A DNA stretch of 40,408 nucleotides from a virus (taxonomy: Duplodnaviria; Caudoviricetes). This document shows positions 4,410 to 39,511 of this stretch, piece after piece. The DNA is taken from the IMG/VR virus record IMGVR_UViG_3300032280_000539, positions 1 to 40,408 of that record. One strand, written 5' to 3'. Made by a program: the position numbers and the translations under genes. Numbering within the stretch: the stretch's first letter is position 1; each line of letters opens with the position of its first letter. Below the pieces are notes generated by a model. The model did no database searches, was not told where the DNA came from, and saw nothing but the letters and a program-made list of their open reading frames with translations.

Positions 4410-4712
4410 ATGCGCTCACTGGAAGTTCACGTATTCGAGACGGATAGGGACATTGACCTTGCTCTCAATGCTGGAGTAGTCCTACCCGAACAAATCGCCA
4501 GAACGGAGTGCGTTGAGTGCGAAGAGCCAATCTGCTACTCAGGGGGTGCTGACGAGTTCTGCCCGTTCGTGCTAATCATTGACGAGAACGACCAAGACTG
4601 GGCACTGTGTGAGGAATGTGCTAGCCCGATCGTTGATTATGTGGACGCTTTCTTTCCACCAGTTGTGAAAAGTCATTTCTTGGCAGACTCTGACGACCTC
4701 GAATACTTCTAG
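4410..4712 (+). CDS. Acidic Zn-binding hypothetical protein (start revised from 4389)
   Basis: TATCCT-N7-ATG; CVEC and CEEC. Confidence 0.65.
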   Translation: MRSLEVHVFETDRDIDLALNAGVVLPEQIARTECVECEEPICYSGGADEFCPFVLIIDENDQDWALCEECASPIVDYVDAFFPPVVKSHFLADSDDLEYF

Positions 4713-4828
4713 GTCAATAGTTATTTTTTCTGTGTAGTTATTTTTTCTGCGACACTCCATAAAAAAATTTCCCTAATGTCGCATACTCCTGTATAGTTGG
4801 TCTTACCACAAAGAAAGGGGTTGCCCGA

Positions 4829-5347
4829 ATGGGTATGGATGTTTATGGGAAGAACCCGAAGTCAGAGGTTGGCACTTACTTCCGTAGGAATGTATGGGGC
4901 TGGCATCCACTTTGGGACTATGTAGAGAATCAGCACCCAGAGATTGCGGAGTTGGTCGAACACGCTCACTCAAATTCTGGAGATGGACTTGGCGCTAGGA
5001 ATAGCAAAAAGTTAGCCAAACTTTTGATGGACGACTTCACCTCTGGAAAAGTTGCCGAGTATGTCGCCGAGCGAAACAAGCAACTTTCCGAATTGCCATT
5101 CGAGGAATGCCGACTCTGCGAGGGGTCTGGAATCCGAACTGACCAGATTGGCAAGAGTGCTGGACAGCACAAGAAAGAACTTGACCCAGACATCTCTATT
5201 ATCGTTGGTCGCACCAAAGGTTGGTGCAATGGCTGTAATGGAATTGGCAAGGTCGAGGATTGGGCAACCAACTACTACCTAGAGCCAGATGATGTAAAAG
5301 AGTTCGCTGACTTTTTGGCAGAGTGTGGTGGCTTCGAGATTTGCTAA
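4829..5347 (+). CDS. Hypothetical protein with DnaJ-type CxxCxGxG zinc finger
   Basis: CRLCEGSG and CNGCNGIG; AAAGGGG SD. Confidence 0.75.
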   Translation: MGMDVYGKNPKSEVGTYFRRNVWGWHPLWDYVENQHPEIAELVEHAHSNSGDGLGARNSKKLAKLLMDDFTSGKVAEYVAERNKQLSELPFEECRLCEGSGIRTDQIGKSAGQHKKELDPDISIIVGRTKGWCNGCNGIGKVEDWATNYYLEPDDVKEFADFLAECGGFEIC

Positions 5348-5392
5348 TCCCCCATTAGCAAACACAACCTGAGCAAGTTGTAAAACTGCTCA
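5341..5392 (+). ncRNA. 3' structured element: C5-loop hairpin followed by H-type pseudoknot
   Basis: TTGCTAAT-CCCCC-ATTAGCAA; ACAAC/GTTGT stem with loop TGAGCA pairing to downstream TGCTCA. Confidence 0.5.
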
Positions 5393-5549
5393 CCAACTTT
5401 TTATGGGGCAATAGTTATTTTTTCTGGTAAATCTTCCGTTACCATTTCGTTATAAACTTTTTATGGAAACGATTTGACAAGTGGCAAAAAGTCTGGTTTA
5501 CTCTAGGGGTAGCAAACGCTACGACACAACACACGAAAGGGGTAGCCAA

Positions 5550-6170
5550 ATGGCAACCACAGCAACACCTAAGTTAGTAGGCAAGGCACTCTACCTAGAG
5601 TTGGTAGCAGACCCTACTATGGATTCAGACAAGATTCGCTCGCTAGTTGGTTGGTATGGCGACAAGGCAGTAAAGCAGATTATCGTCTTTCCGCAGTATC
5701 AGGACGACACAGGCAAGATTTACGAGCCAGCCATTATGACCAGAATTGTGTCACCACACAGCCCAAAGGCACAATGGGATAGGGATATTATGGAAAGCAG
5801 AGGGCGACTAAAGCCAGCAGAGCCAACAGACCCAGATTCATACCACAAGGACTATGTGGACTACAAGACCTACTCAAAAGCAGAGTGGGACGAATTGACT
5901 GACAGAGAAAAGCACGATTCCAGAGTAAGGTCGCTTGACCTACTGCTTCGCTCAAAGATTATTAGTTCGTCTTACGAGGGCGAGGGTGTTGAGCGAGCAG
6001 AGGTAGCAGGGCAGGGTTGGGTAGTTCGTGACAACAAGCCATTCTCGGTAGAAACTACTGACCAAGACCTAATGGAAGTTCACAGGGATTGGAAAACACC
6101 ACAGGCAGTTATTCGCCGAATAAATAAAGTTCGTGGAACACTTGACAAGTTCCCCGAAAAACTAGCATAA
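5550..6170 (+). CDS. Hypothetical protein (start revised from 5481)
   Basis: GAAAGGGG SD before ATG 5550; TTGACA upstream. Confidence 0.7.
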   Translation: MATTATPKLVGKALYLELVADPTMDSDKIRSLVGWYGDKAVKQIIVFPQYQDDTGKIYEPAIMTRIVSPHSPKAQWDRDIMESRGRLKPAEPTDPDSYHKDYVDYKTYSKAEWDELTDREKHDSRVRSLDLLLRSKIISSSYEGEGVERAEVAGQGWVVRDNKPFSVETTDQDLMEVHRDWKTPQAVIRRINKVRGTLDKFPEKLA

Positions 6171-6206
6171 TTCACTTAGATACGACACAACGAAAGAGGG
6201 AAACCA

Positions 6207-7271
6207 ATGTATCTCAAAAAAGTAGTCGCAGAGGCGACAGCACCAGTTCTAGCCACACTTGATTATGACAAGTTGGTTGAGCAACTAAGCACCAGCGTTA
6301 CCTACGCCAGCGTGGGAGTTACGACTTCGATTCTGGACGACCTACTTCCAACAGCAGGTCGAGCCACTATCCGAGCCAAGTCTGGTTCTGGTTCTGGTTC
6401 TACCACAGCCACTAAACTAGAGGACGAAGCAGAGCCAGTTCGACTAGAGGAAACTATGGAATCCACGACAGCACTAGAGGGTGAGGAATCTTACCCACGA
6501 CCTAATGGCGACCTTTACTATGGGCGCAAGTGGGGCGAGAATACTGATGTCGAGGTTCTACGCAAAGCCAGAGAAGCCAACCAGTTCGTAATGCTTTATG
6601 GCAACGCGGGGACAGGAAAGACTGCTATGGTCGAGGCTGCTTTTCCAGAGGAACTTTATACGATTATCGGTTCTGGCGATACAGAGGTTGCCGACCTAGT
6701 TGGTTCTTATGTCCAAACCCCAAGCGGAAAGTTCGAGTGGGTGGACGGAGTTTTGACCAAGAGCGCTATCGAGGGCAAAGTTCTACTGATTGACGAAATT
6801 GGTCTGATTGACCCAAAGGTTCTGGCAGTTGTCTATGGACTAATGGACGGACGAAAAGAGTTGGTCATTACCCAGAATCCAGAGCGAGGCACTATCAAGG
6901 CACAAGAGGGTTTTTATGTTGTTTCGGCAACCAACCCAAATGTGGCAGGTGTTCGTTTGAGCGAGGCACTTCTATCTCGATTCACCATTCAGGCAGAACT
7001 GACTACTGATTGGGGACTTGCCAAGAAACTTGGAGTGCCACAGACAGCGGTTGTCGCCAGCCAGAATCTTGCAAAGAAAATGGAAAATGGTGAAACCAGT
7101 TGGTCGCCACAAATGCGTGAACTTCTAGCGTTTCGTGACCTAGCCAAAATCTTTGGAACTAAGTGGGCAGTCCAAAACTTGCTTGCTTCCGCACCAGAGA
7201 TTGACAGACCAGTTGCAAGTGATGTCTTTACCAGAGTGTTCGGAGAGGCAATTCTTCCAGCGAAGATTTAG
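6207..7271 (+). CDS. MoxR/CbbQ/NirQ-family AAA+ ATPase
   Basis: Walker A GNAGTGKT, Walker B LLIDE, SATNP, ALLSRF. Confidence 0.9.
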   Translation: MYLKKVVAEATAPVLATLDYDKLVEQLSTSVTYASVGVTTSILDDLLPTAGRATIRAKSGSGSGSTTATKLEDEAEPVRLEETMESTTALEGEESYPRPNGDLYYGRKWGENTDVEVLRKAREANQFVMLYGNAGTGKTAMVEAAFPEELYTIIGSGDTEVADLVGSYVQTPSGKFEWVDGVLTKSAIEGKVLLIDEIGLIDPKVLAVVYGLMDGRKELVITQNPERGTIKAQEGFYVVSATNPNVAGVRLSEALLSRFTIQAELTTDWGLAKKLGVPQTAVVASQNLAKKMENGETSWSPQMRELLAFRDLAKIFGTKWAVQNLLASAPEIDRPVASDVFTRVFGEAILPAKI

Positions 7272-7395
7272 TGGTAGTTGTGTCCCACTAAAAAAGTGGG
7301 GGAGTGTCAAAAAGTTTTTTTGGAAATGGACTTGACACTCCCCAACACTTATGGTTTACTAGACACAAGACAAAGCCAGATGAAAGGGAAAGCAA

Positions 7396-9261
7396 ATGGC
7401 ACACTACAAAGTAAAAGGGAAGTCAAGACTTACCAGTCGCACAGCGACAACCAATCCAGAGTGGTTGGCAGTATGTTCACAGATTGGTCGCCTAGTAAAC
7501 GATTGGTCTTGGAGAAGTGACCTAGCGGTTTATGGTGGAGAAGATTCTGCCGAGGGTCAAGCAGTCGCCGCTTTTTATTCAGACATAGCCGAGATTGAGA
7601 TAAACATTCCAAAGGCTTTCGGAGAGGCAATACCAGCCAATCTGGTTGGAAACCTATGCGACAGGGCAACTCAATACGAGTTCCCAATGGTCACAGGAAT
7701 CCTATTCCACGAAGCGTTACACGCTCGCCACACGAATTGGGACATTCCAAGATTGCTAGAGGCACTTGACCAGACAGAGAGCCAAGCCTTTATGTTGCTA
7801 GAGGAATCTCGTATCGAGGCAAAGGGTGTCAAAGAGCGACCAGAAAATCGCCTATTCCTACGCACTTCCGCTTTGGAAATGGCGTTGGAAGATGTAAACA
7901 GCCAGACCCTAGAGAGCGTGGGTAGCGACCTATGGCAGACAGCGAACCTAGCAGGTCTGTCCATTTCCAGAGTGGATTCAGGTGTCCTAGAGGTCGCCGA
8001 CATTCGAGAGATTTACGACTTGGTTGTTTCGGTTATGGGCAAGGAATTGTTTGACGAACTACGCAAAGTTTGGATTGAGTTTCAGTCACTAAGCGTTCCA
8101 CAGATTGAGCGAGCGATTGAGTTGGCTAAGAGGTGGGTCGAGTTGCTACGAGAGGCAGACCCAGAGGGCGAGCCTAATGGTGGCGGTCACGCTTTCGGAG
8201 AGCCAGACGAATCTGGCGAGGGCGAGGGCGAGGGCGACAGCGAGGGCAAGTCTGGCGAGGGCAGGTCTGGCGTTATGAAGAAACTAATTGAGCAGTTGTC
8301 TGATAGTGCTTTCGATACAGAACTCAATGCCAATGATTCTCTAGGCGACCAAGAAACCAAAGAGAAGTGGGACGAGGAAGTAAAGGCTCGCCAGCGTGAA
8401 GCCAAGAACACGAACTCACGCAAGGCACAAGCCAAAGAGGTCTTTCACAAAGAACACAACCAAGAGGGCGGTAATGGTTCAGGGTCGAGAGTGGACACAC
8501 GCAGACAGCCCACAGGTGCAGAGCGAGCGAGTGCAGTCCAGATTGCCAAGATGTTAGACAAGGCAAAGTATCGTGAGCGTTCAGTTCACACCCGAAAGAC
8601 CCAAGCACCAATGGGCAAACTGATTATGCGAAACGCTATCCAGAATCAGGCGTTGGAATCTATGGGCAAGCGTGGCGACTTGCCAGCGTGGAAGTCCAAG
8701 AGCCGAAAGCACACAGACGACCCGACACTAAGGCTCGGAGTTATGGTGGACATTTCAGGTTCTATGGGTTCGGCTATGGAATCTATGGGACAGACGGCGT
8801 GGATTATGTCCGAGGCAGGTCGCAGGATTCAGGCAGAAACCGCAATGATTTATTACGGAAGCGGAATCTTCCCAACGCTAAAGCGTGGACAGCGATTGTC
8901 CGAGGTGACGATTTACACCGCACCAGACGGAACAGAAAAGTTTGCCGAGGCGTTCGAGGCACTTGACGGCGAACTTGGATTGACTTTCGGGGACGGCGTG
9001 AGGATGTTGGTTATCGTTTCAGACGGCAATTACACACCGAGCCAGACCGAGAGAGCCAAGCAGATTCTCGCAGAGTGCAAAACTAACGGCGTGGCAGTTC
9101 TATGGATTACACCGAAGAACTGCTACTCATACGGAGCAAAGGAAATTATTTCGAGTTCGGCGTGGGGAGTTCACTTGGACGACCTAGACACCGCCCAGAT
9201 TGCCACGCTAGTCGGAAAGTCGGCGAGCGAAGCATTAGCGAGGGTGGGAACACTCACCTAA
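7396..9261 (+). CDS. VWA-domain protein with N-terminal HExxH motif (CobT/NorD-like MoxR partner)
   Basis: HEALH, LEESRIE, acidic Gly linker, MIDAS DISGSM and VSDG. Confidence 0.85.
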   Translation: MAHYKVKGKSRLTSRTATTNPEWLAVCSQIGRLVNDWSWRSDLAVYGGEDSAEGQAVAAFYSDIAEIEINIPKAFGEAIPANLVGNLCDRATQYEFPMVTGILFHEALHARHTNWDIPRLLEALDQTESQAFMLLEESRIEAKGVKERPENRLFLRTSALEMALEDVNSQTLESVGSDLWQTANLAGLSISRVDSGVLEVADIREIYDLVVSVMGKELFDELRKVWIEFQSLSVPQIERAIELAKRWVELLREADPEGEPNGGGHAFGEPDESGEGEGEGDSEGKSGEGRSGVMKKLIEQLSDSAFDTELNANDSLGDQETKEKWDEEVKARQREAKNTNSRKAQAKEVFHKEHNQEGGNGSGSRVDTRRQPTGAERASAVQIAKMLDKAKYRERSVHTRKTQAPMGKLIMRNAIQNQALESMGKRGDLPAWKSKSRKHTDDPTLRLGVMVDISGSMGSAMESMGQTAWIMSEAGRRIQAETAMIYYGSGIFPTLKRGQRLSEVTIYTAPDGTEKFAEAFEALDGELGLTFGDGVRMLVIVSDGNYTPSQTERAKQILAECKTNGVAVLWITPKNCYSYGAKEIISSSAWGVHLDDLDTAQIATLVGKSASEALARVGTLT

Positions 9262-9270
9262 GCCCAACGG

Positions 9271-9394
9271 ATTGCCTACCCAGAGGTTGAGCGAACCCAG
9301 AAGTTACCCCCCTTTCTTCTGACCCTAGTTCCCAACGGATAGGTAATAGAAGCCCCTACCAACACTTTCCCCCCTTTAGGTTGGTAGGGGTTTC
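9271..9394 (+). ncRNA. Candidate sRNA/3' UTR with two C-rich anti-SD loops
   Basis: Loop TTACCCCCCTTT (9304-9315) on CAGAAG/CTTCTG stem; loop ACTTTCCCCCCTTTAG (9364-9379) on a 15-bp stem. Confidence 0.55.
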
Positions 9395-9502
9395 GCCTTT
9401 CTGCCAGCCCCAAAATCGTGACAAGTCAGTTTCAGGATCCGGCACCAGGTTCCGCCGGACTGCCCAACTTTTTACGAGTCATAAAATGTCCAAGACCAAT
9501 CT

Positions 9503-9526
9503 CCAGACCCAGACCCAGACCCAGAC
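9503..9526 (+). repeat. Hexamer tandem repeat (CCAGAC)x4
   Basis: Directly visible just upstream of the 15-mer at 9531. Confidence 0.9.
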
Positions 9527-9657
9527 CCCATAGTTATTTTTTCTGTGGAGAGTTATGAGTTTGTTATGTAGCAGAGTTGCCCATACCCACAAGTTACATT
9601 AGGATTGGAGTAACCAATCAGGGTGAAAAAGAAGTAGCCCAGAAAGAAAGGGGCGAA

Positions 9658-10008
9658 ATGGCTAAGGTCGTTTCTCCAGCAACCCAAGAGGTTGCTACGA
9701 CAACTCCAGCAGTTGTCAAGGTTTCACGAAAAGTCGTGGAACTAATCAACGAACTCTCAGAGGTTCGTGCTATCGCTAACTCGGCAGATGCCAGAGTTGA
9801 GGAATTGCGTAAAGCAATCTTCGCCAAGGTCGGCAAGGCTGACCAAATCCTTATCCACAACAGCATTGAGGTCGCTCGCATTATCGAGAGCAACCCAGAG
9901 CGTCTAAGCGAGGAATTTCTAAAAGCGAATTTCCCAGACGCATACGAGGCTTCTGTGAAGCCACGCCAGCAGTTCACCATTCGCTCGGTAACACGCCAAG
10001 CGAAGTAA
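9658..10008 (+). CDS. Hypothetical coiled-coil protein, paralog family with 12743 and 19814 (start revised from 9577)
   Basis: L.EVRA...L, L.HN.IE.A, FPDAYEA. Confidence 0.75.
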   Translation: MAKVVSPATQEVATTTPAVVKVSRKVVELINELSEVRAIANSADARVEELRKAIFAKVGKADQILIHNSIEVARIIESNPERLSEEFLKANFPDAYEASVKPRQQFTIRSVTRQAK

Positions 10009-10156
10009 CCAGAAAGGGGCAGGGCGAAAGCCCTGTCCTTTTCTCACACCAACACCAATAGTTATTTTTTCTGACAAGATTCAACATTCCGTAAAAAGAT
10101 TTTCAAAATGTCAGAGAGTTGTGGTTGAATAGATACAACAAACAGAAGGGAACAAA

Positions 10157-10354
10157 GTGGGTTCAGGAATCAACAGCGTAGAGGTCGAGCGTGAGTTCGC
10201 CTGTAAGGACTGCGGTTGGGAAGGTCTTGCCACAGGCACGACTGACGACTATCAGGCTTTGCTAACTGCGGAGTGCCAGAATTGTAAATACATAATGGAA
10301 ATAGACCTTGATGCCGAGCGTGAACACGAACGAGTGTTCGGCGACAGGGATTAG
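10157..10354 (+). CDS. Zn-ribbon protein, tandem paralog of 10369
   Basis: GSGI...CxxC...TDD...ECxxC. Confidence 0.7.
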   Translation: MGSGINSVEVEREFACKDCGWEGLATGTTDDYQALLTAECQNCKYIMEIDLDAEREHERVFGDRD

Positions 10355-10368
10355 GAAAGGGAGTAAAA

Positions 10369-10632
10369 ATGTCCAGCAATTACCCAGAAGGCTCAATGCG
10401 TGGGTCAGGTATCTATTCACAGGAAATTCAGTATGACAAGTTCTTGTGTGATGGGTGCGATAAAGAAAACCCCGAGGGCGACACAGCGACAGACGATTGG
10501 GGCAACTACTCAATCGAGTGCGAGTTCTGTGGACACACACAGACAGAGAGTAGTGTCTCCGAGGACGAGTATGACGCAAAAGCAGATTCCGACTATGACA
10601 CTTGGCGTGACGAGCAAGACGAGAGGGACTAG
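10369..10632 (+). CDS. Acidic Zn-ribbon protein
   Basis: GSGI...CDGC...TDDW...ECEFC. Confidence 0.7.
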   Translation: MSSNYPEGSMRGSGIYSQEIQYDKFLCDGCDKENPEGDTATDDWGNYSIECEFCGHTQTESSVSEDEYDAKADSDYDTWRDEQDERD

Positions 10633-10636
10633 AAAA

Positions 10637-10831
10637 ATGGAAACCAAATACTGCTACGACTGCGAGGCAGACCTAACACCAGAGAACACCAGCGAGTTCG
10701 GCGGGCTTGACAGCGGAAACCTACACGCTTCACGCTCGGTTGGATTCAACACCACAGTCGAGATGTTTACCAAGTGTGACGACTGCCACAACGCCGACAT
10801 TGACAGGCACTTAGAAAATCAATACAACTAA
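10637..10831 (+). CDS. Small Cys protein (start revised from 10400)
   Basis: METKYCYDC...KCDDC; follows stop at 10632. Confidence 0.6.
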   Translation: METKYCYDCEADLTPENTSEFGGLDSGNLHASRSVGFNTTVEMFTKCDDCHNADIDRHLENQYN

Positions 10832-10973
10832 ACACGACTGCCCAATAATTCACGACAGCGAGCGTGAGTTGGGCAGTTACTTTTCCACCAACTCAATAGT
10901 TATTTTTTCTGCGGTTTGTGACACGCCGAAAAAGTTATTACGAATGTCACGATAAAGGAGTAAAGTTTTATCT

Positions 10974-11273
10974 ATGAAGAAAACAATTAGCACATCAGAC
11001 CTAGCAACTAAAGTTTGTAAGAGAGGTCACATAGGGGATTACATTCTCCGAAGCAATGGCAGTTCGGCTTGTAAGTCTTGCGTCCGTATAAGCGTGGTTC
11101 GATACAACAGAGGGACAAGCGAAATCAAGCGTGAAAGACTGATAGAGGATTCACAGGAGCGCCTGACAGACCTAGAGAAACGAATTCAGGGGCTCAAGGT
11201 GGAATTGGAACTTTCCGAAACAGAATACGAGTTTCTAAAAAAGAGGCTTGCGATTCTGGAAACAACCAAGTAA
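10974..11273 (+). CDS. Hypothetical protein with CKRGH/CxxC motif and coiled coil
   Basis: CKRGH...CKSC; heptad-rich C-terminus. Confidence 0.65.
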   Translation: MKKTISTSDLATKVCKRGHIGDYILRSNGSSACKSCVRISVVRYNRGTSEIKRERLIEDSQERLTDLEKRIQGLKVELELSETEYEFLKKRLAILETTK

Positions 11274-11301
11274 AATCAAACCAACACGAAAGGGGTGCGA
11301 A

Positions 11302-11649
11302 ATGGAAACACCACTCGCATTAGAGGACATCACAGGGCTTGCCCTGACTACGCTCGGCGTGCTTATCGAGCAGTATGTAAAAGAGGGCTACGCCGACCCG
11401 ACTATGTATCAGGCACTCAAAGCGAGCACGGCGCTCGCAACACAATTCAAGGCACGGCTTGAGTATGACGGCGAGAGCAACACGGAGTTGCTTGACGGCG
11501 TGACGCAGTTGCTAGTGGACTTAGAGGTGACGGCTATGGAATGTGGCGAGGTGGTAAACCGAATCATTGACGAGCACGGCTTGCCTATTGACAAAGATAC
11601 TTGGCTTAGAACCGACTGCGACCACGCAGACGGCGAGGACGGCGAGTAG
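11302..11649 (+). CDS. Hypothetical protein (start revised from 11248)
   Basis: GAAAGGGG SD before ATG 11302. Confidence 0.7.
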   Translation: METPLALEDITGLALTTLGVLIEQYVKEGYADPTMYQALKASTALATQFKARLEYDGESNTELLDGVTQLLVDLEVTAMECGEVVNRIIDEHGLPIDKDTWLRTDCDHADGEDGE

Positions 11650-11855
11650 TGGGACGGGTAGTGATTCGCCTGAACATAGACCAAGACATTCCAACGGGCG
11701 AGGTTGGAGACCAAATGGTGACGGACTACATTGACCGGCTAGCCCAGACGGACGGCTTGCTGACCCTGCGTGAGGTAGGGTGGGACTTCTACGAGGACGA
11801 GAACCCTGACGGCTCGCTCAAACCGATTGACCTAGAGACGGGCGAGCGACTATGA
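11649..11855 (+). CDS. Hypothetical protein
   Basis: Start/stop overlaps with both neighbours. Confidence 0.6.
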   Translation: MGRVVIRLNIDQDIPTGEVGDQMVTDYIDRLAQTDGLLTLREVGWDFYEDENPDGSLKPIDLETGERL

Positions 11856-12166
11856 CGGGTATGAGATTTAGCGAAGCCCTCGGCGAGGTCGTCAGAGAGC
11901 GACGGCTCGCCCTGGGGTTGACCCTGCGCAAGGTAGCCTCAACGGGTTACGTCTCTATGGGACACCTGTCGGATGTGGAGACGGGTCGTAAAGAGGGGTC
12001 GTCGTCGTTCATCAACGGGGTAGCCAACGGGTTGGGCGTAGAGGCAAGCGACCTGATTATTCAGGCTGGCTTCCGAATGGCTGGCGTGAAAGTGCCAGAC
12101 ACTCCTGAAAGCCTGTTTGAGCCTGGGAGCGTGTGGGCGAATCAGTATGCTGACCTGAAAAGGTAA
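11852..12166 (+). CDS. XRE-family HTH regulator, ClgR/PopR-like
   Basis: LGEVVRERR...TLRKVA...VSMGHLSDVETGRKEGSS...VPDTP. Confidence 0.75.
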   Translation: MTGMRFSEALGEVVRERRLALGLTLRKVASTGYVSMGHLSDVETGRKEGSSSFINGVANGLGVEASDLIIQAGFRMAGVKVPDTPESLFEPGSVWANQYADLKR

Positions 12167-12360
12167 GGTAAACCTAAGTAGCCCAAGAGGTTAGGTAAGC
12201 CTTACTTAACTTCTTACTTTTCCCAATAGTTATTTTTTCTGGCAGGTCTAAAATGCAACACGATGAACTTGCCAAAACTTCAAACCCTGATAGGCTGTAT
12301 ACATCAGCCAACAGGGTTGATAGAAGTCCTAGCCCCAGAGCTAGGCAAAAAGGGGAAACT

Positions 12361-12549
12361 ATGTTTCAGATTTTCGACCTTGAGGGCGAGCGTATCTCTT
12401 GGACACCTGCGGGCTTCGCAAGCCGAGCCGAGGCGTTGGCTTGGCTCAAGAAGAACGCCGAGCCTTGGGGCGAAGAACCACCATTCCGAATTGCCGAGTC
12501 GCTTGATGAGGAATATGTCGAATTCACCTACTACAATGAGCGACACTAA
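12361..12549 (+). CDS. Hypothetical protein (start revised from 12253)
   Basis: AAAGGGG SD, hairpin leader, terminator after. Confidence 0.65.
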   Translation: MFQIFDLEGERISWTPAGFASRAEALAWLKKNAEPWGEEPPFRIAESLDEEYVEFTYYNERH

Positions 12550-12742
12550 CACCAAAACACGAACCCCCCTGTTTGGGCAGGGGGGTTTCTTTTTGCCGAA
12601 CACCAATAGTTATTTTTTCTGATGTTTCTGCGAAATACCGAGAAATTAGATTGCGACTTGTAGGCATTTAGACTAGGCTGTTCACATCAGCCAAAAGGGT
12701 TGGTAAAAGTCCCAGACACAGGGCTGGGCAAAAGGGGTAAAA

Positions 12743-13087
12743 ATGGCTAACGCCATCGCACAGGCAACTGAGGTTGCCAAAGGCTCAAGAGTTGTTGTTG
12801 AGCAAGTAAAGGAACTAACTGAGGTTAGGGCAGAAATTGCCCGCCTTGAGAAACTGAAAGACGCTCTCACCATTGAGGTTGAGAAGGCTTTCGGTGTGGA
12901 CAAGAAGGCCAAGACCTCACGTCACACCACTCTCACTCACAATGGGATTGAGTTTGCTCGATACGATTGGAGAACTCGCAAGGGGATTGACGAGGACAAA
13001 CTCGCCAAAGACTTCCCAGAGGCTTACGAGGCTTGCTACAAGTTGGATAAGACCATCTTTGGCGTGATTGTGTCGCTGTTCAAGTAG
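12743..13087 (+). CDS. Hypothetical coiled-coil protein, paralog of 19814 and 9658
   Basis: VEQVKEL.EVRAEI.RLE...LTH..IEFA..DW..RKG.D..KLAKDFPEAYEAC. Confidence 0.8.
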   Translation: MANAIAQATEVAKGSRVVVEQVKELTEVRAEIARLEKLKDALTIEVEKAFGVDKKAKTSRHTTLTHNGIEFARYDWRTRKGIDEDKLAKDFPEAYEACYKLDKTIFGVIVSLFK

Positions 13088-13281
13088 TCAAAGGCGAAAG
13101 CCCTCACCTTCGGGTGGGGGCTTTTTCCACGCCGTAAATTCACACCACTACTAATAGTTATTTTTTCTGAGACTTTTACGATACGCCACCATAAGTTGCT
13201 AAATGTTGGGGATAGGGTATAGACTACAGGGGTAGTCAGGAAGTCAAGGGGACTGAGGGCTACTAGAAAGGGGAGTTCCAA

Positions 13282-13533
13282 ATGGAACTTCAGACACGTT
13301 TCACCTCACGAGGCTACTGCTTCGCCGAGAACGTTGAGGAAATGGCAAAGCCCGTTTACCTTGTCCTAGACGAGCACGTCGAACTCATCAACGCCCAGGG
13401 CGAGTGGATTACTCAGAAACTAGGGCAGAATGTTCGCTTCGAACTCTCGCTAGATGAGGCATACGAACTCATCAAGCAGGTGGAGAACGCTATCGCCGAG
13501 GCAAAAGCCAAGAGCGATAGAATGCTCGCCTAG
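13282..13533 (+). CDS. Hypothetical protein
   Basis: Cassette gene with SD and terminator. Confidence 0.7.
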   Translation: MELQTRFTSRGYCFAENVEEMAKPVYLVLDEHVELINAQGEWITQKLGQNVRFELSLDEAYELIKQVENAIAEAKAKSDRMLA

Positions 13534-13720
13534 CAACGCCGAGAAGCCCCTCGCAGAAATGCGGGGGGTATTCTCACGCCGCGGTGATTTTACGCGTAGT
13601 TATTTTTTCTGACATTTATGCGACACGCCGTTGATGAATCAGATTGCGGTTCGGCCCAAAATGCACTAAGCTTTTGATGTAACCAAAAAGGGTTGGTTAC
13701 CAAAGGTAAAGGGGTATCAA

Positions 13721-14062
13721 ATGGAATCACTAGAAGTTCGCTTGGACAAGGCCGTAAAGGCCATTCGCAAGGCAGGAATCACTGCCCGCAAAAATGTAAT
13801 GGGGTGTTGCCGTAGTTGCGTAGACCTCGGTATCGCCGACAATGTTCCTGTGGTCTGGCACTATGGTGGGCAGGGGAATCGCCTGTCTGTGTCTGGAGAT
13901 TGGGCAAACACCGAATCTATCTACTTCAACCACGATAACCTGGCCACCGAAGCGGGACTCACTTCCGCGGGAGAGATTGTTCTCAAGGCGTTCGAGGACA
14001 GTGGGCTGGCCGTTGATTGGGATAGAAGCCCCCACAAGTGCTTGGAGATTGTTCTGAAGTAG
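13721..14062 (+). CDS. Hypothetical protein (DUF6891-like CCxxC motif)
   Basis: GITARKNVMGCCRSC; GL.VDW. Confidence 0.6.
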   Translation: MESLEVRLDKAVKAIRKAGITARKNVMGCCRSCVDLGIADNVPVVWHYGGQGNRLSVSGDWANTESIYFNHDNLATEAGLTSAGEIVLKAFEDSGLAVDWDRSPHKCLEIVLK

Positions 14063-14234
14063 GAATCAGGATTCACCGAAAGCCCCGCCGGATCTGGCGG
14101 GGTTTTTTCTTTTTCCGGTTGATAGTTATTTTTTCTGAAAGTATGGGCGACACGCTAAAAAATGTTGTTGCGTAGTTCTGGGATAGGCATTAGAATTTAG
14201 GTAGTTGGAAAGTCCAACAGGAAAGGGGCAACAA

Positions 14235-14450
14235 ATGTTTACAGCAAGAAGATTCGGATTGGCAGTTCTAACTTTGCCGTTCGCAGGTCTGGCTTATGGT
14301 GCGGTCTATTTCGGACTAGCATTGGTCGCTAACACCTACGCGAGTTTAGGTCTATACCTAAGCAACCTCACCGCTCTAGCGTTCGGCTGGATAATCGCGG
14401 TAACTTTCTCAAAGCAAATTCTAGACTTCATCAACAAGATTGGAGAGTGA
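14235..14450 (+). CDS. Small membrane protein (start revised from 14205)
   Basis: Two hydrophobic segments; GAAAGGGG SD. Confidence 0.7.
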   Translation: MFTARRFGLAVLTLPFAGLAYGAVYFGLALVANTYASLGLYLSNLTALAFGWIIAVTFSKQILDFINKIGE

Positions 14451-14451
14451 G

Positions 14452-14529
14452 ATGAGAAACTTCCTAAAAAGAATTGGGCTAGTCAAGCCCGCTGGCAGAC
14501 ACGCCAAGCGAGGCAGACACGCCAAGTAG
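14452..14529 (+). CDS. 25-aa basic peptide MRNFLKRIGLVKPAGRHAKRGRHAK (not in ORF track)
   Basis: ATG one base after upstream stop, GGAG upstream; GRHAK twice. Confidence 0.5.
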   Translation: MRNFLKRIGLVKPAGRHAKRGRHAK

Positions 14530-14530
14530 G

Positions 14531-14581
14531 GTTGTCCCCCACAACACGGGGCTAGGTGAGTTCCCCCACTCGCCTAGCCCC
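14531..14581 (+). ncRNA. Two tandem hairpins with C5 loops (second doubles as terminator)
   Basis: GTTGT-CCCCC-ACAAC and GGGGCTAGGTGAGT-TCCCCC-ACTCGCCTAGCCCC. Confidence 0.5.
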
Positions 14582-14722
14582 ATTTCTTTTTTTGCGGGTT
14601 GCTCGCGAATAGTTATTTTTTCTGGAAAGTTGTAAACACCTAGCGCGATGAGTTGCGTAACGCGGTGGATAGTGTAAACTACAAGTAGTTACAAACAAAC
14701 ACACAACACTAAGGGGATACAA

Positions 14723-15124
14723 ATGGACACAACAAACACCACTCGCGCGTTCGAGATTACTTCAAACTGCACCTGCCAAGTGTTCGAGAGCGAAGATGAG
14801 GACACCCTAATTCCAAGCAATGAATGTTTCGGTTGCTGGGAATATGACAAGGACAATTTCAAGTATGAGATTCTGAACCCTTGGCTGGAAGCAAATGGCT
14901 GGGATGAGGACACCATTGTTTATGTTTACAGCGGGAACATGAATTGGAACAAGGTCGCAGGTTGGACTAATGTTCGCGCGGGAGAAGCCATTGATTGCCT
15001 AACCCTACGCGGCGACTTCACCCTGCGCTACAAGTTGGATGGCAAGGACTTGACTTGCGTTCGCTCAAGCCATGATGAGTATGGCGCGCTATTCACTTTT
15101 AGCAAGGCGGAGGAAGTCGAATGA
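14723..15124 (+). CDS. Hypothetical protein
   Basis: AAGGGG SD; CxC, CxxC and SHD motifs. Confidence 0.75.
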   Translation: MDTTNTTRAFEITSNCTCQVFESEDEDTLIPSNECFGCWEYDKDNFKYEILNPWLEANGWDEDTIVYVYSGNMNWNKVAGWTNVRAGEAIDCLTLRGDFTLRYKLDGKDLTCVRSSHDEYGALFTFSKAEEVE

Positions 15125-15228
15125 TGAGTTGCCCACACGCGGAGATTCGGTGGCTGGACTGCGAGGAACATGGCAGGGACTGCACTGAAAGAGTCTGCGT
15201 AAACTGCGGTGAAAGCGTCACTGCCTAA
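15121..15228 (+). CDS. Small Cys/His protein (35 aa; not in ORF track)
   Basis: ATGA overlap; MMSCPH...CEEH...C...CVNC. Confidence 0.55.
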   Translation: MMSCPHAEIRWLDCEEHGRDCTERVCVNCGESVTA

Positions 15229-15370
15229 CAGAAGCCCCTGCGGAAACGCGGGGGTTTTCTCGCGCGCTAATCCATAGTTATTTTTTCTGTAAGTTTGATT
15301 AGTCGGCGCTCGCAGGTTGCGCGTTTTTCTGGATTGCTATAAGATTGAGGCAACAAGAAAGGGGGCAGAG

Positions 15371-15565
15371 ATGCCTAGATACGCGGTTGAGGTTCAACTG
15401 AGTGGAAATGATGGAAACGCCTATGCGATTATGGGCGCGGTAAAGCGAGCGCTAAAAGAGGCGGGCGCTTCACGCGAGGAAGTCGAGCGCTACTTGACTG
15501 ATTCAATGAGTGGCGATTATGACAACTTGCTAAGGGTCGCAACAGATTGGGTGGAGGTGCGCTAA
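15371..15565 (+). CDS. Small phage protein of the DGNA(Y/F)AIMG type (start revised from 15317)
   Basis: LSGNDGNAYAIMGAVKRAL...SGDYDNLL. Confidence 0.75.
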   Translation: MPRYAVEVQLSGNDGNAYAIMGAVKRALKEAGASREEVERYLTDSMSGDYDNLLRVATDWVEVR

Positions 15566-15957
15566 TGGGTTCGAGAACAACTTGGAAGATTGTCACTAAT
15601 GATAGTGGCGCGGTAACTTGGCTTTATAGCCATTGGGGTGGAGGGAGCAAGTTCGATGACACACAGCGCGCGCTAATAAACGCGATGCCACGCTGGAGCG
15701 ATGCGACCTATGGAGCGCGCTCATTCATTAGCGCTATTGTTCGAGAGAATTGGAGCGACACCACAGGATTCGGAATTACAGCAACGCTGACAGATGCCGA
15801 ATGCCCGTTCGAGGAAAGTTACTTCAACGCGGTGATTGACTTTACAACTGAGCGCGTGACTTTTGGAAGTCGCGAGTGGAGTTTCGAAGAATTCATTGTT
15901 GCCGAGGATTGTAGTGAGGCGCTACAAGATGAGTATTATGAAGCGGAGTTTGCATAG
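15565..15957 (+). CDS. Hypothetical protein (LYSHWGG motif)
   Basis: TAATG coupling; MGSR...LYSHWGG. Confidence 0.7.
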   Translation: MGSRTTWKIVTNDSGAVTWLYSHWGGGSKFDDTQRALINAMPRWSDATYGARSFISAIVRENWSDTTGFGITATLTDAECPFEESYFNAVIDFTTERVTFGSREWSFEEFIVAEDCSEALQDEYYEAEFA

Positions 15958-16014
15958 AGTAGAGTTATAGAGTTCGAACGCGGGCTGAGCAAAAATGTTC
16001 GCCCGCTTCGACAC

Positions 16015-16094
16015 GCGCTAGAGTTACCCCCCTTCCTCTAGCGCCCGCGGGCAGTAGATTACCCCCTTTTTCTACTGCCCGCCCTTTTTTCTTT
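16015..16094 (+). ncRNA. Candidate sRNA/3' UTR with two anti-SD loops, ending in terminator
   Basis: GCGCTAGAG-TTACCCCCCTTC-CTCTAGCGC and GCGGGCAGTAGA-TTACCCCCTTTT-TCTACTGCCCGC then T-run. Confidence 0.6.
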
Positions 16095-16222
16095 TCAGGG
16101 CATAGTTATTTTTTCTGTAGCTTTTTACAAAAAACAAAGAAATGCGGGTCTGAGGTGTAGACTACTCATGTAGTCAGGAAGCCAAGGGGGTGGAGGACTA
16201 CAGAGAAAGGGCAGGGGTTCCA

Positions 16223-16561
16223 ATGGGACTTATTGCGAGCATCTATCGTTCAGATTACGACAGCGAGATGAATGTCTTTTATGGGAAAAGCAAGGTCACG
16301 CTAGTCAACGTGGAGGGGCCATTCAACCCGACTGAAGACGCTCCAGCAGCCAAGTTGATCCAAGGCTACAGGAACACAGCAATCATCGTGCCAGCAGACG
16401 ACAAGTTTGAGGGCGTTCAGATGAATGGCGGAACTTACGCTTCGACCAGCGACAGCCGTTTTCAGAGAGCAGTGGAGATGCTTTCGGGTGTTTCACACTT
16501 CGCCGTAGCAATTCACGACAGACGAGAGTCTTGGGAAGAGCACGAGCGATTCAGCAGATAA
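16223..16561 (+). CDS. Hypothetical protein (start revised from 16190)
   Basis: MNGGTYASTSDSRF...IHDR; cassette context. Confidence 0.7.
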   Translation: MGLIASIYRSDYDSEMNVFYGKSKVTLVNVEGPFNPTEDAPAAKLIQGYRNTAIIVPADDKFEGVQMNGGTYASTSDSRFQRAVEMLSGVSHFAVAIHDRRESWEEHERFSR

Positions 16562-16652
16562 CGAAAAATGGAAGCCCCTCTTCGGAGGGGTTTTCTCTTT
16601 ATACGATGAATAGTTATTTTTTCTGCCAGGTGTGCTGAACTTTTTACGGAAG

Positions 16653-16681
16653 TTGACAAGTTTGCCGGTTGATGCTAGATT
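16653..16681 (+). promoter_or_regulatory. sigma70/SigA-type promoter
   Basis: TTGACA-N17-TAGATT with extended TG. Confidence 0.8.
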
Positions 16682-16718
16682 TTACTTATCGGAAGTTCCG
16701 ATAGATAAGGGGGCAGAA

Positions 16719-17081
16719 ATGCCAAAGCACGCACTACTCGTAAAGGCAGACCTAAACTATGAAGGTCTTGACATCGCTGAGGGTGAACTAAAGAAACTCC
16801 AAACTGCGGTTGATGGTCTTATCCAGCCCGTAGACATTGGCGACACAGTTACTATGTGGGTGAACGAAGAGGGACTGCTACGCGGTGACTTGAAGCTAAA
16901 CCACCTAGCCACAATGCTGATGGAGGAGATTGGCTACAAGACTCCGATTATGGGGGATGTTGTCTTTACAGGCGCACCAGATGAAGATGGCAACACGATG
17001 GAATTCCCAGCTCAAGCAAGCTACCAGCTAATAGAGCTGATTGACTCCTTCAAGGCTGTGATGGAACAGGCCATCGAATAA
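16719..17081 (+). CDS. DUF3846-like protein (start revised from 16632)
   Basis: LQTAVDGLIQ...MWVNEEGL...N..AT...GDVVFTG. Confidence 0.75.
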   Translation: MPKHALLVKADLNYEGLDIAEGELKKLQTAVDGLIQPVDIGDTVTMWVNEEGLLRGDLKLNHLATMLMEEIGYKTPIMGDVVFTGAPDEDGNTMEFPAQASYQLIELIDSFKAVMEQAIE

Positions 17082-19813: not shown

Positions 19814-20164
19814 ATGTCAGTAGCAACCAAGGCGCAGGTCGCCACCAGGGCAACAAAGGCAACAAAGATTACCGTTGAGCAGGTCAAGCAGTTGATCGAA
19901 GTTCGTGCGGAGATTACCCGTCTAGAAGCTTTGAAGTCTGAATTGACCAAAAAGGTCGAAGCAGTTTTCGGAGTGGACAAGGACAACAAGGTTTCGGAGT
20001 TCGATACCTTGACCCACCACAACATTGAGTTCGCCAAGTTGGACTGGATCTCACGCAAAGGCGTTGACACCGAGAAACTAGCTAGGGATTTCCCGGAAGC
20101 TTACGAAGCTTGTTTCGACCCACAGCACACCACTTACAGCGTTGTGCGGGCGTTGTTCAAGTAA
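19814..20164 (+). CDS. Coiled-coil protein, close paralog of 12743 (start revised from 19790)
   Basis: VEQVKQLIEVRAEITRLE...FGVDK...LARDFPEAYEAC...LFK. Confidence 0.8.
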   Translation: MSVATKAQVATRATKATKITVEQVKQLIEVRAEITRLEALKSELTKKVEAVFGVDKDNKVSEFDTLTHHNIEFAKLDWISRKGVDTEKLARDFPEAYEACFDPQHTTYSVVRALFK

Positions 20165-20293: not shown

Positions 20294-20775
20294 TGCTAAG
20301 CTGATTGTATCAGCCAAAGGGTTGATAAAAGTCCTAGACTGAGTGCTAGGCGAATAGGGGAAACCAATGCGCAACTACTACTACACGGCCTGGGAATCTA
20401 AGGAAGACCGAATTGCTAGGGGCTGGGACAAGCCAAGCATAAATGGCTGGGTTCAGGCACAGAGCATTGACCAAGCCGAAGCGATCATTCGCAGTCACGG
20501 GTTTGTTCGAGACGCGATCACTTTCTACACCAAAGCTCAGAGAAAGAATTTCCGCAGCTACCTTAAGGATCGACCTGGAACACTGATCTAGCTCGGATCA
20601 AAATCTCCCTGGCCCTGGCTCGGGGCTGGGGATTTTTTTGATCCCGCTTGATAGTTATTTTTTCTGAGAGTTTGAAAATTTTTTTGCGGATCGCTTGTAT
20701 TTGTCGGGTAGGTTTGCTAAGCTGATTGTATCAGCCAAAGGGTTGATAAAAGTCCTAGACTGAGTGCTAGGCGAA
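20294..20775 (+). repeat. Identical 61-bp -10/leader duplication
   Basis: TGCTAAGCTGATTGTATCAGCC...GCTAGGCGAA at 20294-20354 and 20715-20775. Confidence 0.9.
20367..20591 (+). CDS. Hypothetical protein
   Basis: Cassette gene. Confidence 0.7.
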   Translation: MRNYYYTAWESKEDRIARGWDKPSINGWVQAQSIDQAEAIIRSHGFVRDAITFYTKAQRKNFRSYLKDRPGTLI

Positions 20776-20787
20776 AAGGGGTTACAA

Positions 20788-26810: not shown

Positions 26811-29009
26811 TTGACAAGCTACGACACTAACGACAGCGAAGCGAAGTGCCCGGTTCCGCGCGGGTCGTCTACAGCACGCGGTACAACTAACGAGGGTTGG
26901 TGGCCAGATCAGCTAACCACTGACGCACTAATCCACAATTCTCCAAAGTCTGATCCATACGGTCCAGATTTTGACTACGCCAAGGAGTTCCTATCCCTAG
27001 ACCTCGACGAGGTTAAGGATGACATCTCCGCAGTTCTAGTTGACTCTAAGAGCTGGTGGCCAGCGGACTACGGAAACTACGGTCCGTTTATGATTCGTCT
27101 AGCATGGCACGCCGCTGGGACCTACCGAGTCTCCGACGGACGTGGCGGTGGCGGAGCGGGACTTCAGCGTTTCGCTCCACTTAACTCTTGGCCAGACAAC
27201 GTAAACCTAGACAAGGGTCGCCGTCTACTTTGGCCAGTAAAGCAGAAGTATGGACGCAAGCTCTCTTGGGCTGACCTCTTCATCTTGGCAGGTAACGTTG
27301 CCCTCGAGGACATGGGATTCAAGACCTATGGCTTCGGCGGTGGACGCGCAGATGTTTGGGAGCCAGACAACACCTACTGGGGTTCGGAGACTGAGTGGTT
27401 GGCTAACGGCCGCTATGACGCGACCCGCGAGGCAGGCACACTTGAGAATCCACTTGCAGCTGTGCAGATGGGTCTGATTTACGTAAACCCAGAGGGCCCG
27501 GATGGCGTCCCTGACTTCAAGCTAGCTGCTGCAGACATCCGCGAGACATTCGGCCGTATGGCAATGAATGACGAGGAGACTGTTGCACTTATTGCTGGAG
27601 GCCACGCCTTCGGTAAGACTCACGGTGCAGGTTCTGCAGACCAGGTTGGTGTTGAGCCAGAAGGTGCCCCGATCCACCAGGCTGGACTCGGTTGGGCAAA
27701 CTCACAGGGCAAGGGCCACTCGGAGGACACCATCTCTTCTGGTCTAGAAGTTACTTGGACTCCAAACCCGACCCAGTGGGACAACGACTACCTACGCATG
27801 ATCTACGCTTACGACAACTGGGAGCTTGAAGAGTCTCCAGCTGGTGCTAAGCAGTGGCGTCCAGTTGCAGACGAAATCAACCTAGCTCCTCACGCTCACC
27901 TTGAGAATGAGTTTGTTGAGATTCGCATGCTAACCACCGACCTAGCCCTGCGCTTTGGCGACGAGACTTACAACGACATCTGCCAGAAGTTCCTTGCAGA
28001 CTTTGACTACTTCTCTGATGTCTTCGCGAAGGCTTGGTACAAGCTGACTCACCGTGATATGGGCCCTAAGGTTCGTTACTTAGGTGCCGAGGTTCCAGAG
28101 CGTGAGCTACTGTGGCAGGACCCAATTCCAGGATCCCGCTCGGCTGCAATCTACCTAACAGAGGACCAGCGTGCAGAACTTAAGGACTTGATCCTAGAAA
28201 CTGGTATTCCAGCTTCTAAGCTAATCAAGACTGCGTGGGCGTCTGCGTCAACCTTCCGCAACACCGACAAGCGCGGTGGAGCGAATGGTGGTCGCATCAC
28301 TCTAGAGCCTCAGGTTTCTTGGGAAGTCAACGAGCCAGAGATCCTAGAAGAAGTAATCACTGCACTCAAGGAAATCAGACGCAAGTTCAAGACTTCCATG
28401 ACGCTAGCTGACCTTATTGTCTTTGCTGGCACCATTGCGGTTGAAATCTCGATCGAAGACAACGGAGTAGATACCTACGAAGTTCCATTCCTAGGCGGCC
28501 GTGGTGACGCAACTCAGGCCGATACTGACGTTGAGTCTTTCAACCACCTACGTCCAGTTGCTGACGGTTTCCGCAACTATGCTCCAAGACACGAAGACAT
28601 CGCAGAGCGTCTACTTCTAGAGAAGGCAGCCCTACTTGGCTTGACTCCTCCAGAGTTGACAGTTCTTGTTGGCGGTCTACGCGTCCTCGGTGCAAACCAC
28701 GGCGACTCCACTCACGGTGTTCTTACGGAAACTCCTGGCGTTCTAAACAACGCCTTCTTCCGTAACCTCCTTGACAACGAGATCGCTTGGGCACCTAAGG
28801 CTGACCTTCCGGGCGTCTACGGTTCTCACGCATACGCCGACGGAGAGCGCAAGTGGACCGCGACTCGTGCAGACCTAGTGTTTGCATCGAACTCTGTTCT
28901 ACGTGCACTGGCAGAGGTTTACGCCTCTGACGATGCCGGCCGCAAGTTCATCCTCGATTTCATCGCGGCTTGGACCAAGGTTATGAACGCCGACAGATTC
29001 GATTTATAA
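26811..29009 (+). CDS. katG: Catalase-peroxidase
   Basis: [56 protein letters not shown]-terminal KVMNADRFD. Confidence 0.97.
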
Positions 29010-33681: not shown

Positions 33682-34137
33682 ATGAACACGCCAAAACTCG
33701 ACATTGCACAGAAACTCGCGGGGGTTTTGTCTGATACTGTCACCGCAAAGTACATCCTTCAGGGATATCACTGGAACGTACTTGGCCCCGACTTCGGCGA
33801 GTATCACGAGTTCTTTGGAACTCTCTACGAGGACGTAGACTCTTCGATTGATCCGCTGGCTGAAAACATTCTGAAGGTTGGCTACCCTGCTCCCTACCTG
33901 CTGAGTGATTTTGTAGAGATGTCTACAATCAAAGAAGAGCGTCAGGACGGATCCTCTACTCACTTTATGCTTCAGTCTACTCTTCGTGTTTTAGAGAAGC
34001 TATACGCTTGCCACCTAGAGGCCTTCCACATCGCTGATCAGCACGACCTTCAAGGTCTGATGGACTTCTTAGCCACGCGTATTGACATGTACGCCAAGTG
34101 GGTTTGGCAAACAAAGGCATACCTAGGAGTTCGCTAA
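33682..34137 (+). CDS. dps: Dps family ferritin-like protein
   Basis: HWNVLGPDF..YHEFF..LY.....IDPLAENI ferroxidase signature. Confidence 0.9.
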   Translation: MNTPKLDIAQKLAGVLSDTVTAKYILQGYHWNVLGPDFGEYHEFFGTLYEDVDSSIDPLAENILKVGYPAPYLLSDFVEMSTIKEERQDGSSTHFMLQSTLRVLEKLYACHLEAFHIADQHDLQGLMDFLATRIDMYAKWVWQTKAYLGVR

Positions 34138-39492: not shown

Positions 39493-39511
39493 ACGGGGCC
39501 CGGGAGGCCCC
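39483..39511 (+). other. Candidate -1 programmed ribosomal frameshift signal
   Basis: C_CCA_AAA in phase directly before TAG; 5-nt spacer; GGGGCC-CGGGA-GGCCCC hairpin. Confidence 0.75.

Follow-up and report, generated by a model that had tools for sequence, protein, structure and literature searches.

In Staphylococcus aureus, RNAIII and RsaE occlude Shine-Dalgarno (SD) sequences by means of unpaired C-rich motifs; they are independent, trans-acting small RNAs (sRNAs) of Firmicutes. Closer to the subject of this work are RNAs that control translation from the end of the same message or from tandem C-rich loops. A motif in the 3' untranslated region (UTR) of icaR mRNA, also from S. aureus, pairs with the SD, blocks initiation and yields a substrate for RNase III (PMC3868564), and in hok mRNA long-distance pairing between the two ends of the molecule sets its translatability (tac/fbi; PMC9841398). 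The loops of 6C RNA (RF01066) suffice to repress G-rich ribosome-binding sites (RBSs) in actinobacteria with no chaperone needed, and overexpression of this RNA stops growth of Mycobacterium smegmatis through dnaB (PMC6486639); its stability and a link to the SOS response have also been described (PMC5014011). Here, a stretch of 40,408 nucleotides (nt) from IMG/VR record IMGVR_UViG_3300032280_000539 (the window), a 40-kb piece of a large actinobacterial phage whose virus record is 24% complete, was compared with these systems. As judged from its sequence and that of its relatives, the hairpins at the 3' ends of two early units, behind the genes of an AAA+ ATPase and of a VWA-domain partner protein, rather likely pair with the leader of the message that they end, and would keep ribosomes from loading when that message is finished.

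All features of the two units are on the plus strand. The AAA unit starts with gene X (5550-6170; 206 aa, no family match), whose leader contains the site GACACAAC at 5523-5530. The same site is found at 6184-6191 in the leader of the AAA+ ATPase gene (6207-7271; Pfam AAA_5, MoxR/CobS-like by PHROG matches), directly 5' of the SD, and a promoter-like TTGACA..CATAAT lies at 6142-6171 before this gene. A hairpin at 7267-7292 displays GUUGUGUC in its loop (7275-7284), which complements both leader sites. The VWA-domain protein is encoded at 7396-9261 (621 aa; HExxH and DxSxS motifs in the sequence, a weak VWA_CoxE match with E=5.5e-4, under the curated cut-off, and no PDB relative found) behind the RBS GAAAGGGAAAG at 7382-7392. 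This RBS is the cognate target of element E1 (9271-9394), composed of an outer helix (9271-9347) around a hairpin with loop 9304-9315, and of a terminator-like hairpin of 15 bp (9349-9394) with loop 9364-9379. The complements of the VWA RBS are CUUUCCC in loop 9364 and CCCUUUC at loop 9304.

A profile of the ATPase retrieved 80 related loci, which together with the window and two GenBank records gave 51 non-redundant representatives. Covariation was scored in 42 of the 51, nine having been omitted by choice (cut-short loci, close sisters and outgroups), and the tails of the AAA and VWA units in 38 of the 42, four being skipped for lack of a usable intergenic gap or start call. In these 38 phages, the post-AAA region paired with its own AAA leader at -9.5 kcal/mol and with foreign ones at -4.1 kcal/mol (p<5e-5); for the leader of gene X the values were -9.5 and -4.3 kcal/mol (p<5e-5), and the VWA leader was not matched (p=0.92). 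The post-VWA element paired with its own VWA leader at -9.5 kcal/mol (foreign, -4.6 kcal/mol) and matched the AAA leader weakly. Within the same phage, matched pairing exceeded crossed pairing in 37 of 38 cases (p=2.5e-11). Over 19 disjoint sister pairs, the own leader was preferred to that of the sister by 16:0 for VWA, 12:1 for AAA and 14:1 for gene X, and the crossed tail-leader tests were null (9:8, 8:7 and 7:8).

Compensation was observed down to single bases. The VWA RBS GGGAAAG accompanies loop CUUUCCC in the window and in relatives L061 and L021, and RBS GGGAAGCA accompanies loop UGCUUCCC in L022, L018 and L019; each of the leader sites GACACAAC, GACACGAA and GACACGAC meets its exact complement in the post-AAA loop. 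As this last site lies 5' of the SD, mimicry of 16S rRNA cannot explain the match. The cognate match was restricted to the 84 AAA and VWA units, with a mean quantile of 0.21; among the remaining 492 units it was at chance (0.50). Among cultured relatives, the post-AAA hairpin complements the gene X leader in three Microbacterium phages (-8.4, -7.6 and -5.6).

Both tails carry a 3' UTR motif that is complementary to, and conserved together with, the RBS region of its own mRNA. This is the arrangement of icaR, where pairing may likewise occur in cis or in trans (PMC3868564). The phage differs from icaR in displaying the motif in hairpin or terminator loops, with duplexes of 7-13 bp instead of about 40 nt, in having two adjacent units with separate addresses, and in the type of evidence, covariation over 38 genomes as opposed to experiment. 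With hok mRNA it shares the pairing of both ends of one message; on the other hand, no toxin or antisense partner was seen in the phage, and its 3' loop complements the RBS region itself.

The structure of E1 is conserved as well. Over nine close copies, 95.6% of 251 pair cells were kept paired and 9 of 28 pairs were altered on both sides, which 0 of 500 shuffles matched; this count was made on a hand-set structure with a misaligned inner hairpin and three pairs omitted, and leans towards structure. RNAalifold, applied to 13 E1 copies aligned with MAFFT, recovered the terminator and nothing else, and the outer helix was counted afterwards on the nine closer copies.

Two additional structures were observed in this region. 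A helix GG-UU-GAGC/G(U/C)UC-CC with a 2-nt bulge (9283-9292 with 9328-9333) is nearly invariant in E1, and UGAGC-type stems resembling it adjoin other C-loop elements (5366-5392 and 15982-16002); this recurrent helix is a possible protein or nuclease site. Between the AAA and VWA genes, a 12-bp inverted repeat (7298-7343), whose right arm holds the TTGACA of the VWA promoter and whose arms are altered but kept in relatives, may act as a terminator or bind a protein.

An earlier reading of this DNA (the original prediction) had listed seven hairpins with unrelated stems and C-rich loops, and all seven loops were found at the coordinates that it gave. They belong to E1 and to three further elements: E2 (15972-16095; a 5' hairpin, two C-loop hairpins with loops 16024-16035 and 16059-16070, and a U tail), E3 (14531-14591; a weak CCCCC-loop hairpin at 14536, a 14-bp terminator with a UCCCCC loop at 14562, and a U tail) and E4 (5340-5362; a 9-bp hairpin with a tight CCCCC loop, 5349-5353, over the stop codon of gene 4829-5347). 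The hairpin behind the AAA gene is an eighth loop-displaying one, absent from that list. Six of the seven fold with an open C-rich loop on a firm stem; the 14536 hairpin is weak and open in the centroid structure. Between 4701 and 23000, hairpins with a C5 loop and a stem of at least 9 bp number five on the plus strand and none on the minus strand (mean 0.055 and maximum 1 in 200 dinucleotide shuffles). Over the 51 loci, 107 C-loop hairpins were counted on the plus and 21 on the minus strand, the respective figures for all stems of at least 9 bp being 1496 and 1271, and 44 of the 51 loci have at least one strong C-loop hairpin. Among relatives the loops persist while the stems differ freely, and the stems that carry the kept loops covary. 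The seven hairpins are thus real, on the plus strand only and conserved, yet not a single kind of thing.

That these hairpins are ordinary intrinsic terminators with incidental loops, or the SDs of minus-strand micro-ORFs (open reading frames), is very improbable. A C loop does top a terminator-like stem at 9364, 14562 and 16059, and a 34-aa minus-strand ORF overlaps E3, but the G-runs of this ORF lie within its frame and not upstream; a start codon stands 4-11 nt from only 17 of the 107 minus-strand G-runs, below the approximately 25% expected by chance according to our own estimate, and both the loop-leader covariation and the strand bias disfavour this explanation.

The loops had also been described as the reverse complement of the cassette RBS AAAGGGG. 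Complementarity is never full, since the loops have 5-6 C against 4 G in most RBSs; perfect complements extend to 8-9 nt at most anywhere on the plus strand. AAAGGGG can be read by four loops only (9304, 9364, 16024 and 16059, with flanks UUU/UUC), not by the tight C5 loops (5349; 14536/14562), which reach -9 kcal/mol at just 4 of 35 cassette RBSs; these four GGGGG leaders are the only ones on which E3 and E4 do so.

The main function assigned to the hairpins by the original prediction was a class-wide one: RNAs derived from the 3' ends would accumulate and repress in trans the whole AAAGGGG early class, sparing host and late mRNAs. The comparison with host leaders depends on the probable host, deduced from a closely related phage contig that sits inside the bin of the metagenome-assembled genome (MAG) G001, whose 16S rRNA has the canonical 3' end CACCUCCUUUCU; we take the family to be Microbacteriaceae. 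The variant SD was confirmed as a signature of the phage cassettes: AAGGGG is present in 20 of 35 cassette leaders (one of them probably a false call) and in 0 of 14 late leaders. In the complete relative G122, one non-cassette leader out of 163 has it, and sampled stretches of two probable host-family genomes give 6 of 313 and 0 of 83 leaders; plain GGGG (31/313) and GGGGG (7/313) also occur there. Binding that reaches -9 kcal/mol is predicted for E1 and for E2 alike at 19 of the 35 cassette leaders and at none of the 14 late ones; the counts are 4 and 9, respectively, for the 163 non-cassette G122 leaders, and 16 and 18 for the 313 host leaders (about 6%). The two best predicted targets of E2 are the RBS of gene 18183 (-14.3 kcal/mol) and GAAAGGGGG at 15357-15365 (-13.6 kcal/mol), the latter belonging to gene 15371, the first gene of the cassette of E2 itself.

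Covariation with the whole class was detected too. In 42 phages, the post-VWA region preferred the leaders of its own phage to foreign ones (-0.91, p<5e-5; internal-ATG control, -0.14, p=0.04), as it did in 15 of 21 sister pairs (p=0.011), and its loops followed the downstream cassette leaders (-0.79, p<5e-5). Examples are UUAUCCUUUCU with AGAAAGGAUAA in L027, in which both loop and RBS have switched, and UUGUCCUUU with AAAGGACAA in DSL-LC01. However, a pseudo-loop made of the reverse complement of each VWA RBS yielded by itself -0.63 of the -0.79, and the class-wide signal is therefore largely a by-product of a shared RBS style. The number of CCCCUU-type loops tracks the use of AAGGG (rho 0.65 in 42 phages; 9:1 in the 10 informative of 21 sister pairs); of the 15 high-GGGG phages 11 have this type, as do 5 of the 27 low-GGGG ones. 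C loops as such are kept in 18 of the 27 low-GGGG phages. In all nine window-clade members with a C-run loop that were examined, the C-runs of E1 (5-7) are longer than the three G of the cognate RBS; together with the tracking of AAGGG by CCCCUU loops, this excess leaves room for a secondary class-wide role.

Other observations speak against repression of the class as the main function. E2 does not track the leaders of its phage (p=0.51 in 18 phages, in which E1 gives p=1e-4), and a simple consensus scan of 4700-17000 revealed no separate promoter before E1-E4. A conserved phage target for the C loops was also sought; of 81 families, only one had GGGG in all seven of its leaders, and it was discarded because the upstream gene overlaps there and encodes Trp-Gly, as read from the sequence. 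The low-GGGG phages have no G-rich-leader family in common. The address tag keeps partial support from predicted binding, with cognate matching accounting for most of the class-wide covariation. As the main story it is not supported, since the leader that covaries most strongly with a tail is that of its own message; we regard it as rather unlikely that class-wide repression is what the loops are chiefly for.

E2, E3 and E4 are better compared with 6C RNA, which comes from the phylum of the host itself and is a nearer precedent than RNAIII, the one initially proposed; the likeness to RNAIII and RsaE consists in a C-rich motif on the SD, and the phage elements had no family match in the Rfam scan, which gave for the window three weak, unrelated matches and for six related loci none at gathering score. 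Of 101 genomes from the probable host family, 31 gave RF01066 matches, three of them above the cut-off; these 6C RNAs combine a small hairpin on the 5' side with a pair of UU-CCCCCC-AA hairpins, the layout of E2. Two adjacent stem-loops with about six C per loop, as in 6C RNA, were found in E2 (C6 and C5, on stems of 9 and 12 bp), in E1 (C6 and C6) and in the 6C-type E3 (C5 and C5). A host-family 6C covariance model (R1), built from 31 sequences and run on 56 sources at E<=5, gave 15 matches. One was a training sequence; the other 14 were phage elements, all on the plus strand, with E2 orthologues at 27.5-38.3 bits. RF01066 itself found nothing in the window, and none of 50 related records scored above its gathering threshold of 47 bits (best, 28.5 bits). 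The position of E2 is also kept: a C-loop hairpin lies at most 600 nt from the same gene family in 14 of 23 complete loci vs 71 of 522 other genes. From its predicted fold, E2 is built like 6C RNA, with predicted G-rich RBS targets and a terminator-like last hairpin, and is not a member of RF01066. Unlike 6C RNA as described (PMC6486639, PMC5014011), the phage modules stand in 3' UTRs, several per genome, with flanks shifted to UUU in the lineage of the window.

These elements do not follow the leader of their own unit in the manner of icaR: no covariation was found for E2 (p=0.37, n=17) or E4 (p=0.43, 8 of 14), and for E3 it was borderline (p=0.07, 8 of 12). E4 is the least conserved element, being present in L005 and L021 and lacking a C4 in 6 of 14 homologous 3' regions. 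E3 is immediately preceded by a 25-aa ORF (14452-14529), and a similar peptide-coding stretch is found in L018 and L021. The Cuckoo/CcsR RNAs of Alphaproteobacteria are likewise tandem hairpins with variable stems and an anti-SD-like loop, co-transcribed behind a small gene; their loop is the fixed CCUCCUCCC (PMC4615179). The phage loops are C-runs or leader-specific sequences that change with the target, they have no Rfam match, and CCUCCUCCC was not found in 2-4 adjacent hairpins.

An improbable alternative is that E2, E3 and E4 mimic host 6C RNA and are aimed at G-rich mRNAs of the host or at one of its 6C-binding factors. The common layout, the host signature UU-CCCCC-AA kept by many relatives (L018, L091, L031, L027 and L033) and the growth arrest by 6C through dnaB mentioned above would agree with it, as would L027 and L089, which keep such loops while their own targets are scarce among the sampled leaders (8-9% reach -7). 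Nevertheless, the window E2 has UUU and not AA flanks, GGGGG is as rare in host leaders as noted above, and the covariance-model score may arise because C loops, GC stems and a U tail have converged. Host shut-off via dnaB is not supported, as GGGG occurs in just 1 of 13 dnaB leaders of small-genome members of the host family.

Scanning of host-family genome G110 (1.4 Mb) revealed a tandem C-loop RNA on the minus strand (L221, 12957-13043), a diverged 6C-like RNA that gave no 6C match in a 601-nt Rfam scan. In the phages, a single hairpin of 13-18 bp with the conserved loop (C/U)AGUC(C)UCUCCCCAGU follows a -10-like hexamer in L022 (3705-3752) and in most relatives, approximately 4-7.5 kb upstream of the AAA gene, and its counterpart probably lies just beyond the left end of the window. 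It looks like a stand-alone sRNA by its sequence features; a conserved target was not found for it.

Several points weigh against self-directed repression by the AAA and VWA tails. The duplexes are short, mostly 7-13 bp, and many other sites in the window complement the post-AAA region equally well; the window E1 pairs with its own VWA leader at -7.2, the mean for the other cassette leaders being -9.5; the post-VWA match reaches -7 in 29 of 38 phages, with several clades lacking a match; and the post-AAA target sites lie 5' of the SD and not on it. In Pumpernickel, one of the three Microbacterium phages, the gene X leader ranks only 6 of 64 leaders for the post-AAA hairpin, and three Gordonia phages inspected by eye have no such post-AAA loop. 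The energies come from a simple helix-plus-opening model in which target structure is ignored, and the starts from a crude gene caller of our own. The window E2 itself was matched neither by R1 nor by RF01066, and the host is known only indirectly.

The identical covariation data would serve a pairing of the two ends that is real and not repressive, such as protection of the mRNA ends, a hok-like delay until 3' trimming, or a loop for re-initiation. A model for this is hok, whose full-length mRNA is kept closed by pairing of its two ends until trimming at the 3' end activates it (PMC9841398), and in the window clade the target of the post-AAA loop is upstream of the SD, near the predicted transcript start. 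Most relatives, however, pair over the SD and spacer (for example GGAGACC, GGAAGGA and GAAAGGAACGGAA), which is hard to reconcile with activation, and we consider a non-repressive role of the pairing to be unlikely.

Regarding the genomic setting, the AAA ATPase and the terminase of the window have 70% and 73% identity, respectively, to those of DSL-LC01, a metagenome-assembled phage whose host is predicted to belong to Actinomycetia (PMC10611076), and 44-64% to those of Microbacterium phages. An array of short cassettes spans 4.7-22.8 kb, followed by packaging and head genes. Most cassettes are opened by the 15-nt word TAGTTATTTTTTCTG, placed upstream of most cassette promoters and present between 4718 and 22220 in 24 copies on the plus strand (one mismatched) and one on the minus strand; L018 has the same word, and other relatives carry words of their own. 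Three paralogous cassette genes of 114-116 aa (9658-10008, 12743-13087 and 19814-20164) belong to a family common to many relatives. Cassette leaders of nearly the same sequence, having two short hairpins at the 5' side (12301-12360, 12681-12740, 20301-20365 and 20725-20786) stand before unrelated genes, which suggests recent cassette shuffling. Close to the terminase are genes for a catalase-peroxidase (KatG-like; 26811-29009) and a Dps/ferritin (33682-34137), both present in a related phage contig too. KatG was discarded as a host marker, because its 86% match (L098, G001:C118) is a contig of a related phage that was placed in the MAG bin and therefore points to the host by co-binning only. 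Finally, an ORF of 1146 aa ends in C CCA AAA TAG followed by a GC-rich hairpin (39483-39511), and the -1 frame is open past the stop for 308 codons to the end of the window, with a motif FDFETTG that we take to be DnaQ-like; the site is a candidate for programmed -1 frameshifting.

For the AAA and VWA units, repression by the finished message would proceed as follows. Once the 3' end is made, its loop would pair with the short leader, by folding back in cis or between copies, and this pairing would stop further initiation as in icaR, so that the protein output per AAA or VWA mRNA would be capped. The other five loops (E2, E3 and E4) are 6C-like modules that, by the 6C precedent, would bind G4-G5 RBSs without a chaperone. 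In the lineage of the window, the cassette RBS has moved to AAAGGGG, many loops carry CCCCUU and surplus C, and the predicted targets are mostly early genes of the phage itself; a class-wide brake is therefore plausible as a secondary, lineage-specific use and not as the origin of the loops. A bolder version, which we put forward as a tentative possibility, is that the phage co-evolved a private RBS (AAAGGGG) and 6C-derived loops into a protein-free circuit, in which tails mute their own message and, as they accumulate, shut off the whole early class while sparing host and late mRNAs; this circuit might also be connected to the 6C stress RNA of the host.

In the literature searched, by title and the opening of the abstract and mostly among open papers, neither 3'-5' UTR pairing nor a 6C-like RNA was reported for phages. 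Direct control of this kind between 3' and 5' UTRs is documented for few bacterial mRNAs (icaR and hok). The two adjacent phage transcripts, each with its own address, could show whether an mRNA, once finished, is able to silence itself, and their covariation allows a compensatory design base by base. The matched RBSs and loops would be natural orthogonal pairs for actinobacteria. If the tails do silence their own messages, the phage would have a way to dose the AAA/VWA machine, or to end early expression, without a repressor.

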